Assembly: GCA_019090315.1 (NCBI GenBank)
Contig: JAHRWD010000087.1
Span: 35,925-99,924 of the forward strand
DNA length: 64,000 nt
Direction of reading: 5' to 3'
DNA from: Pseudomonadales bacterium
GTDB taxonomy: Bacteria > Pseudomonadota > Gammaproteobacteria > Pseudomonadales > JAHRWD01
Positions 43,970 to 48,580 of the stretch are shown piece after piece (position 1 is the first letter of the stretch; each line of letters starts with the position of its first letter). The position numbers and the translations under genes were made by a program. The notes under the pieces were generated by a model that saw nothing but the letters and a program-made list of their open reading frames with translations, was not told where the DNA came from and did no database searches.

Positions 43970-45232
43970 ATGTCACCAACGATCCCTTCAAAGACCAACA
44001 CGATGTATATTTCGACATTGTGCTGTGATACTCGAACCAGGAAGGTTTTTGAAATATTCTTTCGCCGAATGTGTAACGGCCGGTTCTGCTTAACAGACGA
44101 TCATCGACGTGCCGACGCAACCATAATTGATATGGATATTTACGGCGCCCTGGAGAAGCATATCGAGTTTCGAAAAAGCTTCAGGAATCAGCCCCTTGTC
44201 GCCCTGTCCACAGCAAAAAAGTTACCCAATATACCTCACACTTATAATTTAAAAAAACCACTGAATCACGAACACCTTAAAAAATTACTGGCCAAAATTG
44301 GTAAAGGCTCGATTAGTTCCAGCACCCATACCGGAAACCAAAAGCCAGAAAATGCCTTACCGAAAAAACGACACAACGCTATAGAGAAAAAACCTGTAGA
44401 GAAAAATTCCGCTCCAAATTTTGTGCCCCGAAAACCATCCTCAGCCTCAAATCAAGCGGGAAAACTGCTAGGGGAAGAAAAAACCCATCAATTCGTCGGG
44501 ACACATGACGATATCGACACCTCAAATTCAACAGAGGTAAAGAATGCGTTGTATGATCCAACCCATATGCTCCAGGGCTCGATACATGAGGCTTGCAAAT
44601 TGGCGGAGGAAAAAAACACTACAATAGAACTGATCTCTTTTGGAATTGGAATTATTATCGACCCACATGCATTCAAAGTTTACACTGTAGTTTCAGATTC
44701 CGTATTACGCCCCCTGTGCTTGTTAGAAGACAAAAAAAAGCGCCGGTTTGAAGAACTCGCCTCGTACTCTGACAACGTCTATACGGAAAACTCAAAGCCT
44801 AACGCAAAACTAATTGAGTGGGATATTGATGCGTTTCTCTGGAAAATCAGCCTGTGGTCCTCTCGAGGTAGAGTTCCAAAAGGTACAAATTTTCAAAGCA
44901 AAGTGTATCTCTCTCAGTGGCCAAATCTAACACGATTAGAAATGATCCCGCACGCATTACAAATATCTGCACTTCTAACACAAAAACCGCGTCAACTCAG
45001 CAAAATTTCGAAGCAACTTGGGTTGCCTCAACGTTATGTGTTTGCGTTCTATAGTGCCTGCAAAAGTTTAGGTATCGCCAACGAATGTAGGCGGCAGAGT
45101 GACCATATTTTTGAAGAACCCCCTGTACGGACTGAACGTGCCGATAGACTGGAATCGACCACTTCAATCATGAAGAAAATCATTTTCCGACTCACCAGAA
45201 GAAACCCTTCTGATCAAAAACATAGCGCTTGA
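43970..45232 (+). CDS. Receiver-like domain protein with K/P/S-rich linker and C-terminal HTH-like segment
   Basis: The N-terminus has a beta-alpha pattern like a receiver (YISTLCCD...ATIIDMDIYG...PLVALS...NLKKPLNHEHLKKLL). A low-complexity linker follows (GNQKPENALPKKRHNAIEKKPVEKNSAPNFVPRKPSSAS). The C-terminal segment is RQLSKISKQLGLPQRYVFAFYSACKSLGIA. The start is uncertain: 43886 GTG, 43970 ATG or 44003 ATG. Confidence 0.55.
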   Translation: MSPTIPSKTNTMYISTLCCDTRTRKVFEIFFRRMCNGRFCLTDDHRRADATIIDMDIYGALEKHIEFRKSFRNQPLVALSTAKKLPNIPHTYNLKKPLNHEHLKKLLAKIGKGSISSSTHTGNQKPENALPKKRHNAIEKKPVEKNSAPNFVPRKPSSASNQAGKLLGEEKTHQFVGTHDDIDTSNSTEVKNALYDPTHMLQGSIHEACKLAEEKNTTIELISFGIGIIIDPHAFKVYTVVSDSVLRPLCLLEDKKKRRFEELASYSDNVYTENSKPNAKLIEWDIDAFLWKISLWSSRGRVPKGTNFQSKVYLSQWPNLTRLEMIPHALQISALLTQKPRQLSKISKQLGLPQRYVFAFYSACKSLGIANECRRQSDHIFEEPPVRTERADRLESTTSIMKKIIFRLTRRNPSDQKHSA

Positions 45233-45256
45233 ACAGACAATCCCGGACAGTTTTCA

Positions 45257-45790
45257 ATGAGTAATCTAAAAATCATATTTACTGGGCCCGTTAGAGCAGG
45301 AAAGACAACCGCAATCTCTACCCTCAGCGATGAAGCAGCAATTTGCACGAATGAGTCGGCGACGGATATGACCAAAAGCCGAAAACCAGATACCACCGTA
45401 GCCATGGACTACGGTGTCATGAACCTTGATGGCACGGAAAAAATACATCTGTATGGAACACCCGGACAGGAGCGATTTAATTTTATGTGGGATATCCTTA
45501 CCACTAACGGTCTGGGTTTAGTGCTTCTCCTGGATAACACACGTAAAGATCCACTAAAAGATATGCAGTTTTTTATTCAGGCATTTCGGCCTTTCATTGA
45601 TGAAACCGCTTTAGCGATTGGGATTACGCGCACGGACGTAAGCTCAACACCCAGAGTCAATCTGTATACAGAGAAGTTACGTGAATTAGACTTAAGCGCA
45701 CCGCTATTTTCCACTGACGCCCGAAATTACGATGATGTATCGATGCTGGTACAGTCACTGCTGTTTACTATCGATCCGGGATTAGTATAG
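45257..45790 (+). CDS. Small Ras-like GTPase (MglA/CvnD, COG2229-like)
   Basis: G1 is GPVRAGKTT, the switch I Thr is in DTTVAMDYG, and G3 is YGTPGQERF. G4 is non-canonical (candidate GITRTDV, or LLDNTRKD). 177 aa. Confidence 0.8.
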   Translation: MSNLKIIFTGPVRAGKTTAISTLSDEAAICTNESATDMTKSRKPDTTVAMDYGVMNLDGTEKIHLYGTPGQERFNFMWDILTTNGLGLVLLLDNTRKDPLKDMQFFIQAFRPFIDETALAIGITRTDVSSTPRVNLYTEKLRELDLSAPLFSTDARNYDDVSMLVQSLLFTIDPGLV

Positions 45791-46186
45791 ATGCCTGATA
45801 TCATGAAAATAGACCAGCCAAAAAATCCAGAGTTTATAAAGAATATCATGGATCCCTATTTTCTAGTCTCACAAAAAAACCAGATTTCATTCCTCAAAAT
45901 AATTGAAATTTGTGACAACGGATCTCTGCTAAAACAGCAGATAATATCCCTGCTAAACTATCGAATAAAGGAAGATGACCACAGGCTATTGGATCATGTA
46001 AGAAGGATTGTAATTTATTCGGAGTATGAGGAGGAGCATGCAAATGTATACGATGCGGTATATGAACTATTTTCTGTATTGGAAAACAAAGGAACTCACC
46101 TCAAAGTAAGTATGTTTCGTTTGGTGAAAACATACCTGACGAAAGAGCAGGAAGACCAGCTCAATCATATTGTAAAACTCATTTGA
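45791..46186 (+). CDS. Hypothetical helical protein (131 aa), no recognised family
   Basis: Its ATG directly abuts the GTPase TAG stop (45788-45793 reads tagatg). The gene is very AT-rich and I saw no motif. Confidence 0.5.
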   Translation: MPDIMKIDQPKNPEFIKNIMDPYFLVSQKNQISFLKIIEICDNGSLLKQQIISLLNYRIKEDDHRLLDHVRRIVIYSEYEEEHANVYDAVYELFSVLENKGTHLKVSMFRLVKTYLTKEQEDQLNHIVKLI

Positions 46187-46204
46187 TAGAATAGAACTTA
46201 CCCG

Positions 46205-46899: not shown

Positions 46900-47262
46900 A
46901 TGCGAGACGATATACTTTCATCTGTACTTTCAGAACTAAATGGTACCTCTGCAGATATTGAAGCATCTGCTGTTATCTCTACCGACGGACTCATGATCGC
47001 GGCTGTTCTTCCCCAGGGGGTTGATGAAGATCGCGTTGGCGCAATGAGCGCTGCCATGCTGTCATTAGGTGATAGAACCGCTGAGGAGTTAGGTAGAGGT
47101 ACGCTGGAGCAAGTGCTTATCAAAGGTGACAATGGGTATGTACTAATGACCCATGCCGGCGAAGATGCAGTGGTTACTGTGATGGCCAAGCCAAAGGCAA
47201 AACTCGGACTAATATTCCTGGACGTAAAGCGTGCAACCCAGAGTATTACCGAGCTTCTTTAA
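46900..47262 (+). CDS. Roadblock/LC7 (MglB/CvnB-like) domain protein
   Basis: AGGAG RBS at 46889-46893. The 120-aa sequence has the canonical Roadblock pattern (ASAVISTDGLMIAAV...AAMLSLGDRTAEELGRG.LEQVLIKGDNGYVLM...VVTVMAKPKAKLGLIFLDVKR). Confidence 0.8.
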   Translation: MRDDILSSVLSELNGTSADIEASAVISTDGLMIAAVLPQGVDEDRVGAMSAAMLSLGDRTAEELGRGTLEQVLIKGDNGYVLMTHAGEDAVVTVMAKPKAKLGLIFLDVKRATQSITELL

Positions 47263-47308
47263 ACTGGTTTTTTGGTACAACACATCCGCAGCAATAGAGG
47301 TACCCCCT

Positions 47309-47782
47309 ATGAACGATATGCAACCTGATCAAATAGTGGGTGAGTATGTTGAGCATACGTTAAATTTTTATGATGGATCTTCTCGAAAGATACTGGTTAC
47401 CGAAATTGAAACCGAATTTCCAAAAGGTTGCCTGATCGTTTCACGAACGGATACCAGTGGCGTCATTACCCACTGCAATGAATCCTTTGTAAAAATGTCC
47501 GGATACGCAAGGGAAGAACTAATAGACCAGCCCCACAGCATACTTCGCCACCCAGATATACCACCTGCAGCTTTTGCCGATCTGTGGAACACCCTGGAGA
47601 AGGGTGAAAAGTGGAATGGTTACGTCAAAAACCTTCGTAAGGATGGTGGCTACTACTGGGTATATGTGACTGCCATACCCAATATCCGAAATAGCGTAAC
47701 CCAGGGATATACATCTGTGCGTAGAGAACCATCCAGGAAAAAGGTGGAAGAGTGCATCAAGCTATACCCAACTATGTTTTAG
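47309..47782 (+). CDS. Stand-alone PAS domain protein (Aer-type PAS_3)
   Basis: SRTDTSGVITHCNESFVKMSGYAREELIDQPHSILRHPDIPPAAFADLWNTLEKGEKWNGYVKNLRKDGGYYWV matches the PAS fold found in Aer-like receptors. No output domain is present. Confidence 0.8.
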   Translation: MNDMQPDQIVGEYVEHTLNFYDGSSRKILVTEIETEFPKGCLIVSRTDTSGVITHCNESFVKMSGYAREELIDQPHSILRHPDIPPAAFADLWNTLEKGEKWNGYVKNLRKDGGYYWVYVTAIPNIRNSVTQGYTSVRREPSRKKVEECIKLYPTMF

Positions 47783-47833
47783 CATTTTGAACGGTATACA
47801 TTCTGCCCCGCCTATAGTTATTTGGAGAAAACC

Positions 47834-48580
47834 ATGACCTATCAACTGGCTATCAGTCCAGATTTCAAACCTGAACTTATCTCTGACTGGTTCATCTTTA
47901 ACACCTGGTTTCAAAGACAATGGGGACAGGGTGTACATCTCGAGCTGCATCAAGGTTTTGATGAACAACATCAGGCCCTAAACGATAAGAAGATTGATAT
48001 TATCTATGCAAACCCTTACGACATGTCTCGGCTGGTAAGGGAAGAGGGATTTATAGCCATTGCCAAACCATTTCAAAAACCAGATGAAGCAGTCATCGCT
48101 AGCCATATTGATAGTGGTATTCAATCTCTGGATCAGCTAACTGCTCCCCTCACTATCGCTCAGGCCGATTCACCAGATGTGAACACCATTGGCATGATTA
48201 TGATCGAACCTGCCGATATTGATCCTGCTGATATTATCGTTAAGGGTGCGCCAAGCTATGTCAGCGTGGCAAAACAGTTGATCAACGGTGATGCTCAAAT
48301 CGGTTTTTTTCTGGCTGAGGCATTTAACGAGCTATCCCGTCTGGTAAAAAAACAACTGCAACCCGTTATCAGCAGTCAGATTCATATGATTCATCATGCG
48401 TTGTTATTGAGCCCTAATTGCAGCGAGCACATTAATACCGTTAGAGAGATACTTCTTTCAATGCACCAGGATGCAAGGGGCAATGAGATTCTGAAAGGGC
48501 TGGGAATCGAGTACTGGGAGCCGATGGAGCAGGAAGATGCAGAGTTTATGGTGGATCTTATGGATACGCTGATTACCTGA
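47834..48580 (+). CDS. PhnD/SsuA-type periplasmic-binding-protein fold without signal peptide
   Basis: GGAGA RBS 8 nt upstream of the ATG at 47834. The pattern IDIIYANPYDMSRLVREEGFIAIAKP... is typical of phosphonate-type substrate-binding proteins. The N-terminus MTYQLAISPDF has no hydrophobic leader. Confidence 0.6.
   Translation: MTYQLAISPDFKPELISDWFIFNTWFQRQWGQGVHLELHQGFDEQHQALNDKKIDIIYANPYDMSRLVREEGFIAIAKPFQKPDEAVIASHIDSGIQSLDQLTAPLTIAQADSPDVNTIGMIMIEPADIDPADIIVKGAPSYVSVAKQLINGDAQIGFFLAEAFNELSRLVKKQLQPVISSQIHMIHHALLLSPNCSEHINTVREILLSMHQDARGNEILKGLGIEYWEPMEQEDAEFMVDLMDTLIT

Follow-up and report, generated by a model that had tools for sequence, protein, structure and literature searches.

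The stretch of DNA analysed here (the window) is 64,000 nucleotides (nt) of contig JAHRWD010000087.1 from a Pseudomonadales bacterium. Between positions 43970 and 48580, on the + strand, it carries a block of seven genes, labelled O1 to O7 in order, one of which encodes a small Ras-like GTPase. Judging from GTPase motifs, gene order and orthology to listed members, this block is very probably an MglA Group 3 system, in the form that has one GTPase and two Roadblock proteins (one MglA for two MglB). An initial annotation, made from the letters alone, had described seven co-directional open reading frames separated by 0 to 51 nt and a GTPase stop codon touching the next start. All of this was found: the seven genes lie on the + strand with successive gaps of 24, 0, 18, 44, 46 and 51 nt, and the TAG that ends the GTPase gene is followed without a gap by the ATG of the next gene (45790/45791). 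The features are listed below, with protein lengths in amino acids (aa).

43970-45232, + strand: O1, 420 aa; an alternative GTG start at 43886 would give 448 aa
45257-45790, + strand: O2, 177 aa, small Ras-like GTPase, very probably of MglA Group 3
45791-46186, + strand: O3, 131 aa, N-terminal helical half of the protein called U below
46205-46852, + strand: O4, 215 aa, 'MglB-1', with a divergent Roadblock-like C-terminal half
46897-47262, + strand: O5, 121 aa, 'MglB-2', canonical Roadblock/LC7 protein
47309-47782, + strand: O6, 157 aa, stand-alone PAS protein of the Aer type (predicted flavin adenine dinucleotide (FAD)-binding class)
47834-48580, + strand: O7, PhnD-fold protein, 248 aa from an ATG start, as in its homologues, or 252 aa from a TTG at 47822
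43500-43969: spacer of 470 nt between a divergent formate/nitrite-transporter gene and O1

Group 3 membership and conservation of the block

Pfam recognised the GTPase, the Roadblock protein O5, the PAS and the leaderless PhnD-like protein that had been called initially. O2 matched ATP_bind_1 (2.8e-8) and Ras (4e-5), in each case above the cut-off, O5 matched Robl_LC7 at 2e-17, O6 matched PAS_3 at 4e-16 and O7 matched Phosphonate-bd at 5e-33. The motifs of O2 are GPVRAGKT in G1, a TT pair in G2 (DTTVAMDYG), GTPGQ in G3 (YGTPGQERF), GITRTD, without Lys, in G4, and DAR in G5 (STDARN); G1 to G3 are intact. Of 80 homologues, at least 95% have GTPGQ and the TT pair, and the G/T/D residues of G4 and the DAR are conserved as well. 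The description of the G3 motif as CvnD-like was accurate, owing to this GTPGQ.

In their 2015 survey, Wuichet and Sogaard-Andersen sorted the prokaryotic MglA-like GTPases into five groups (PMC4316618). Group 3, found almost exclusively in beta- and gamma-Proteobacteria, has GTPGQ in G3, a Thr for the Arg in G2, a G4 that departs from [NT]KxD in having no Lys, and DAR in G5. Its conserved neighbourhood combines MglA and one or two MglB with a preceding protein of unknown function (DUF), in which a variable linker joins a receiver-like N-terminus to a C-terminus that Phyre2 predicts to resemble a winged helix-turn-helix (wHTH) (PMC4316618). The G2/G3 motifs, the G4/G5 motifs and the neighbourhood are all found in the block, its host belongs to the Pseudomonadales, and nothing in its core differs from Group 3 as described. 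Orthology points the same way. The supplement of the survey lists the order DUF>MglA>MglB>MglB, with GTPases of 178-179 aa, for Methylomicrobium alcaliphilum MEALZ_2464, Methylomonas methanica Metme_1347, Leptothrix Lcho_0655, Teredinibacter TERTU_4498 and Neisseria NMB0476 (PMC4316618). O2 is 65% identical to an M. alcaliphilum protein that is itself listed as Group 3, and 55% identical to the Neisseria gonorrhoeae GTPase, compared to 30-34% for Streptomyces CvnD.

The proposal of an undescribed system has therefore to be given up, as the four-gene core corresponds to MglA Group 3 with orthologues in that supplement. The block is of a kind that is known bioinformatically and unexplored mechanistically, and not a novel system. 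Literature searches by name or locus tag returned no mechanistic or biochemical study of any Group 3 system; those by locus tag (Neisseria, Xanthomonas, Methylomicrobium and other members) gave only omics-type papers mentioning the tag in passing. What the window adds is an operon of seven genes rather than four. Gene U, the Aer-type PAS and the cytoplasmic binding protein, all present here, are unnoted in the survey (PMC4316618); these genes are unmentioned in the Group 3 papers found, and are new here.

The same genes in the same order were found in ~80 genomes and 11 metagenome contigs, a recurrence far beyond chance. The series U-O1-GTPase-O4-O5 is kept in the ~80 genomes, among them Methylococcales, Thiodiazotropha, Leucothrix, Cellvibrionales-like taxa, Burkholderiales and Neisseria, and the order O1, O2, O4, O5 holds in essentially all of the ~80 loci that reach far enough. 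The Methylomonas and Leptothrix loci are part of this syntenic set. Conservation across Gammaproteobacteria, which the initial annotation had proposed to examine, is thus observed, and extends to Betaproteobacteria. The closest relatives of the window are two metagenome contigs, L093 and L094, whose O4 and O1 are respectively 57-59% and 44-45% identical to its own; their gene order is O1, GTPase, U (231 aa, full length), O4, O5, PAS and two binding proteins. Within the window, no second copy of any operon component was found outside the block.

Three loci showed peculiarities of their own. An insertion of ~4 kb separates O4 from O5 in L025 (9172-13139), and one of ~1.6 kb separates O1 from the GTPase gene in L007 (3312-4957), the operon being otherwise intact in both. 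Locus L085 comes from a 2.17-Mb Neisseria gonorrhoeae record of PLSDB (NZ_CP119140.1), which is filed as a plasmid and is evidently chromosomal. The alignments of its Group 3 GTPase gene and of its O1 gene are both split into two pieces or frames, and the two genes may be pseudogenes in that strain.

The partner proteins and the sensor slot

O1 has no match in Pfam, and its profile retrieved nothing below E 0.9 among PDB sequences. An AlphaFold (AF2) model was built on a 51-sequence alignment, with a mean confidence score (pLDDT) of 81.7. In this model, residues ~12-111 adopt a reduced receiver-like fold, and nearly all of the top 50 Foldseek hits of this domain were receiver domains (probability 1.0, TM 0.55-0.63). 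Residues D20, D54, D56, S80 and K96-P97, at least 90% conserved, fall at the positions of the receiver acidic pocket, Thr/Ser and Lys-Pro; as read from the alignment, this conservation of putative signature residues goes past the fold-level statement of the literature. Next come a disordered and variable K/P/S-rich linker (116-164, in both model and alignment), an alpha/beta middle domain (~169-300), and three helices with a strand (329-372). The receiver fold and the variable linker of the Group 3 DUF are thus both seen in O1, and the receiver-like domain and K/P/S-rich linker that had been noticed initially are upheld by model and Foldseek. The HTH-like C-terminus that went with them is upheld by half: its topology fits an HTH, and no significant Foldseek match accompanied it. 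Nothing in the PDB matches the middle and C-terminal parts significantly, which leaves the putative wHTH an argument from the predicted topology.

The window matches a metagenome-assembled genome (MAG) annotated as a Pseudomonadales bacterium, two of whose proteins, P0001 and P0121, show 100% identity. The NCBI annotation of this MAG starts O1 at Met55, giving 366 aa (P0121), which would delete strands 1-3 of the receiver-like domain (43970-44132). The longer start is right, because homologues align from residue 1-12 onward.

The best-conserved module of O1, a protein whose family comprises 1,904 clusters at 50% identity, spans residues ~283-372 (FLWKxxLWSSRGRxPxGT...WPNLTRL...PHAxRIAAL...L.IPQRYVFAFYSA). 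On the Ralstonia solanacearum megaplasmid (L095, 3608-4582), this module constitutes a 124-aa protein by itself (hhalign 92.7%, E 4e-7), and its gene immediately precedes that of a related GTPase (37% identity), after which a second set of small genes of similar kind seems to come. In P0426, an O1-like protein is naturally fused to a Group-3-like GTPase (40% identity over 172 residues). Apart from this GTPase fusion, a Pfam scan of the longer O1 homologues revealed no alternative N-terminal domain. On plasmid pSU2 of Agarilytica rhodophyticola (L096, 3267-4943), a gene lying directly upstream of a distant GTPase gene (32% identity) and a Roadblock gene encodes a BLUF domain and a weakly similar WPDF-HTH stretch, an arrangement that suggests light-gated versions of the same module. 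The conserved C-terminal end of O1 is likely a GTPase-binding element.

Whether it would also be an exchange factor of the CvnC type is a more tentative matter, possible in our view but not favoured. Comparison by hhalign of 110 O1 C-termini with 127 DUF742 proteins gave a probability of 48.6% and P 1.8e-4 over 43 HTH columns, with P 0.2 in a reversed-sequence control. None of 51 O1 homologues matched Pfam DUF742, and a forced global hhalign placed SRGRxP one residue from the TGGRTRP motif of DUF742 with P 0.023, which is not significant. We take the apparent similarity between O1 and DUF742 as a lead, not as a result.

The 131-aa O3 had been considered an orphan, and turns out to be a truncated copy of a conserved member of the system. 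Almost all of the ~80 related loci, including Neisseria, encode immediately upstream of O1 a protein of 225-250 aa, called U, which consists of a conserved helical N-terminal half and a tetratricopeptide repeat (TPR) C-terminal half (19 of 29 members match TPR_19). The window has no U upstream of O1, and O3 is a homologue of the N-terminal half of U (hhalign 97.3%, E 1.8e-11). Compared by BLASTP with the full-length U found at the same position in L093 and L094, it scored 7e-9. Judged from these alignments, U moved behind the GTPase gene in the window's clade, rather than standing before the DUF gene, and its TPR half was lost in the window. The truncated and relocated U is the sole exceptional point of this window. 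Its retention in the operon after this rearrangement is an argument for U being part of the system.

O5 is the most conserved gene of the operon, with 72-85% identity across orders, and its family profile matched PDB 7f8m at 2.4e-30, CvnB5 at 3e-11 and MglB at 4e-3. The protein itself is ~50% identical (E 3e-26) to 7f8m, a 'Robl_LC7 domain-containing protein' that is much closer to it than any bacterial MglB structure. O4 has a conserved N-terminal domain and a C-terminal half, residues ~90-210, in which a Roadblock-like domain had been noticed initially. At the level of the family the observation stands: 17 of 30 members match Robl_LC7 (best 1.7e-4), 10 of the 30 match LAMTOR5, and the family profile matches CvnB5 (PDB 3leq) at E 0.05 in the same region. 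For O4 alone the match to Robl_LC7 is marginal (E 0.085), and the comparison with O5 failed, as reported below. The survey counted O4-type genes as MglB, and noted an Asp-Gly pair for the Roadblock proteins of Groups 2-5 (PMC4316618). O5 keeps this pair; O4 has D-x-Q-G.

Among the phmmer matches of O6 were the PAS of Aer (8dik) at 2e-34, MmoS at 4e-26 and NifL PAS1 at 4e-10. Its QPHSILRHPD aligns with QPHNMVRHPD of Aer, and RHPD, which we take to be the flavin-site motif of Aer, is present in at least 95% of 55 homologues. On these alignments O6 is a putative FAD-PAS of the Aer/MmoS/NifL class, not a generic PAS; it differs from these proteins in standing alone, without HAMP, kinase or chemoreceptor (MCP) output.

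The Pfam match of O7 covers profile positions 2-241 and begins at the very N-terminus of the protein, which leaves no room for a leader and makes O7 cytoplasmic. Its homologues are uniformly 247-255 aa long, and against the PDB it showed only weak similarity, to the arsenate sensor ArrX. Of the features of a PhnD-type ABC-transporter binding protein, the fold is present, and the signal peptide and the adjacent permease and ATPase are absent; no transporter gene was found in the O7-bearing loci examined. The sensors AioX and ArrX of the PhnD family likewise have the full fold and lie away from transporter genes, but O7 differs from them by its lack of a signal peptide. Compared with both Aer/NifL/MmoS and AioX/ArrX, the partner here would be a GTPase module rather than a two-component kinase.

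Sixty-six loci had enough sequence downstream of O5 for the following genes to be scored. PAS and binding protein occupied this slot in 53 (50 scored automatically, and 3 in which the starts overlap O5). The rest carried a PAS alone (1 locus), a CZB protein (3), a protoglobin (2), a Cys-rich 217-aa protein (1) or nothing related (6). The stand-alone CZB and protoglobin genes are the following.

L044, 9654-10019: stand-alone CZB
L071, 9092-9451: stand-alone CZB
L080, 10342-10707: stand-alone CZB
L074, 9675-10232: stand-alone protoglobin
L076: stand-alone protoglobin

CZB is a zinc-binding domain of the chemoreceptor type, and like FAD-PAS and protoglobin it senses oxygen, redox state or oxidants. 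By their predicted domains, the accessory genes of the operon are redox/oxygen-type sensors that replace one another across genomes. Since some loci are free of sensors, these are accessory rather than core. A metagenome scan for relatives of the binding protein yielded 13 contigs, and in all 11 that had enough flank the complete block lies upstream. Several relatives have the PhnD-fold gene as a tandem duplicate (L093, 8844-10543; L094, 5179-6878; L097, L102, L103 and L106), against a single copy in the window. The initial suggestion that the PAS and binding-protein folds serve as inputs is plausible; whether the switch does receive a redox or ligand input we regard as evenly balanced.

Proposed working of the switch and its alternatives

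Taken as a whole, our reading is that the block is a Group 3 switch extended by operon-encoded sensors, kinase-less and gated by redox state or ligand, and we hold it to be somewhat better than an even bet. O2 would cycle between GDP and GTP, and O4 and O5 would form a heterodimeric platform that stimulates GTP hydrolysis, by analogy with MglB and MfpD. MglB acts as a dimer on one MglA. O1 would bind O2 through its C-terminal WPN-HTH module, as exchange factor and/or effector, and would be gated by its receiver-like domain. U, here present as its N-terminal half O3, would be a TPR adaptor or effector. O6 would report the redox state and O7 a small anionic ligand, both biasing the GTPase cycle. 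No histidine kinase would take part: the conservon histidine kinase was indeed missing among the seven genes, as first noted, and no kinase at all was found among them or in the annotated flanks of related loci. The output is the least secure part of this reading. It could be transcription, through the O1 HTH, or else some target protein, for example in the pilus or polarity machinery; the latter is hinted at by Snodgrassella and by pilB and pilC in L074, both described below.

Several points weigh against this reading. It was built on sequences and models, from which we infer the protein contacts, the nucleotide activity and the cofactor. By hhalign, the O4 and O5 families showed no relationship (probability 0.5%), and O4 as a putative Roadblock protein is a weak assignment, drawn from slight profile matches to individual family members and from the literature. 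Residues 165-420 of O1, modelled separately (pLDDT 85), gave no significant Foldseek match in the PDB, and the match of O1 with DUF742 covers the HTH alone, at a probability of ~49% that possibly reflects generic HTH resemblance. In six loci and in Neisseria, no sensor gene follows O5. The truncation of U may mean that the window copy is partly degenerate. Finally, the only experimental Group 3 data found, those on Snodgrassella, point to colonisation, possibly to pilus-dependent spreading, and not to redox sensing.

The block resembles the conservons (CvnA-D/AGPS) in the unusual G3, G4 and G5 motifs of the GTPase, in the pairing of CvnB-related Roadblock protein (O5) and CvnD-related GTPase, and in a small HTH-containing product encoded directly upstream of the GTPase, with weak profile similarity. 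In seven retrieved conservons (L086-L092), the CvnC/DUF742 gene is directly upstream of CvnD, and accessory sensors (GAF, P450, solute-binding protein) are found downstream. Such sensor proteins encoded next to conservons have been reported (PMC13343842). In the mycobacterial Mfp operon, the Roadblock protein MfpD is a GTPase-activating protein (GAP) (PMC11343762), and MfpC (DUF742) is the guanine nucleotide exchange factor (GEF) for MfpB. The differences are marked. The CvnA histidine kinase is present in all seven conservons and absent from the window block; conservons have one Roadblock protein, whereas two unlike ones are encoded here; the CvnC-like module is fused here to receiver-like and middle domains, with no DUF742 match in Pfam; and the GTPases, from Actinomycetota there and Proteobacteria here, share the low identity given above.

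From these likenesses one may go further and suppose that Group 2 (conservon) and Group 3 systems share an ancient core of three parts, in which a GTPase is joined by a Roadblock GAP and by a small exchange factor of the HTH type whose gene comes just before that of the GTPase, and that the histidine kinase was replaced in Proteobacteria by direct, kinase-free gating. We think this unlikely, though worth stating. The exchange-factor module would be found fused to a receiver-like domain, fused to BLUF (Agarilytica) or alone (Ralstonia), and the swappable slot after the Roadblock genes would hold FAD-PAS and a cytoplasmic binding protein, protoglobin, or CZB. If true, this would be a bacterial G-protein pathway that reads oxygen or redox state and metabolites via a heterodimeric Roadblock platform, a functional counterpart of Rag-Ragulator. 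Rag GTPases and Ragulator (LAMTOR) likewise use a heterodimer of unlike Roadblock-fold proteins as a small-GTPase platform integrating metabolite sensors, and the LAMTOR5 matches in the O4 family fit this likeness. The analogy is nevertheless functional, with a sequence relation at the superfamily level only, and neither a membrane anchor nor a TOR-like target is seen here.

Among the other explanations of the block, the survey's own suggestion is that of a transcription switch (PMC4316618): O1 would be an atypical response regulator acting on DNA by its winged-helix C-terminus, the GTPase and Roadblock proteins only modulating it. The Phyre2 wHTH prediction (PMC4316618), the three helices and strand of the AF2 model at 329-372 and the receiver signature residues kept by O1 all fit this view. 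We nonetheless judge it rather improbable, as O1 matches no DNA-binding wHTH structure significantly and no HTH family of Pfam, CvnC/MfpC, which is just as HTH-like, is a GEF and is not known to bind DNA, the top-conserved motifs LWSSRGRxP and WPNLTR lie outside the putative recognition helix, and no cognate kinase is encoded.

Another explanation is a polarity or motility module like that of Myxococcus, where the GTPase would mark a cell pole and, together with Roadblock GAPs, a RomR-like O1 and the TPR effector U, would control type IV pili or surface motility. The initial annotation had compared the parts to MglA, MglB, MglC, RomR and RomX, which holds as an analogy only: the Group 1 system of Myxococcus xanthus also combines a Ras-like GTPase with paralogous Roadblock regulators, a receiver-domain partner and TPR effectors, and TPR proteins count there among the known effectors of MglA-GTP (PMC7519303). 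In Snodgrassella, which has a Group 3 system, cells with a point-mutated orphan mglB colonised a non-native bee host better and formed colonies with altered edges and flares; in transposon sequencing, all three mglB genes scored as beneficial. In L074, pilB and pilC lie directly downstream of the block. The catalytic hallmarks of Group 1, however, are absent from O2: the intrinsic Arg finger beside the G2 Thr and the G3 TVPGQ are replaced by TT and GTPGQ. O1 and U were likened to RomR and RomX by their descriptions, the common feature of O1 being the receiver-like fold only, and the conserved C-terminus of O1 has no counterpart in descriptions of RomR. Here a single operon encodes all partners; in Myxococcus, the genes for RomR and the Frz system lie apart from mglA (PMC4316618). 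No motility gene is adjacent; gliding and type IV pilus genes were missing among the genes checked at 40.4-60.7 kb, as the initial annotation had it, and pilus or gliding genes are likewise missing from most loci. The Snodgrassella phenotype is moreover indirect, and we regard this module as distinctly unlikely.

The weakest alternative is that two unrelated units happen to be neighbours, namely a GTPase module of five genes and a pair of PAS and binding protein with a separate function of its own: it draws on the six loci and Neisseria where the five genes occur without the pair, and on the survey, which did not list the pair as conserved neighbours (PMC4316618), but appears very improbable given that in 53 of 66 loci the pair follows at once, separated by a short gap or overlapping, that every close relative of the binding protein found independently (11 of 11) sits in the block, that the pair stayed attached although U moved, and that other small sensors use the same slot.

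Flanking genes and reach of Group 3 systems

Group 3 systems amount to about two thousand clusters at 50% identity, and occur in Neisseria, Xanthomonas, Stenotrophomonas, methanotrophs and sulfur-oxidising symbionts. The present finding is of value for its longer parts list, for the pattern seen in the sensor slot and for a possible connection with the exchange factor of conservons. Methylotuvimicrobium and Methylomonas are genetically tractable hosts that carry the full operon.

The operon promoter presumably lies inside the 470-nt spacer upstream of O1, where no sigma-70 consensus was recognisable on the + strand. An RNA element upstream of the operon was ruled out, since no Rfam family matched in 43-49 kb. 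A role in anti-phage defence was ruled out as well, no PADLOC model matching any of the seven proteins. The flanking genes are on the opposite strand, which makes the seven-gene block a discrete unit.

Upstream and divergent, at 40389-43499 on the - strand, are genes for a fusion of PP2C phosphatase and Ser/Thr kinase, a cyanase and a transporter of the formate/nitrite family; the cyanase and transporter pair suggests cyanate use. Convergent with the operon end, after a gap of 56 nt, a gene at 48637-52365 on the - strand encodes a 1242-aa MASE1-CHASE-PAS-PAS-GGDEF-EAL protein, one PAS domain of which is 27% identical to O6. A gene of this kind was not seen beside the operon in the related loci with examined flanks. 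Further on, at 52888-60658 on the - strand, come two beta-ketoacyl synthases, a short-chain reductase, an ApeP-like dehydratase and a halogenase/FAD-oxidoreductase-like protein, a run of genes that looks like an aryl-polyene-type lipid or pigment cluster.

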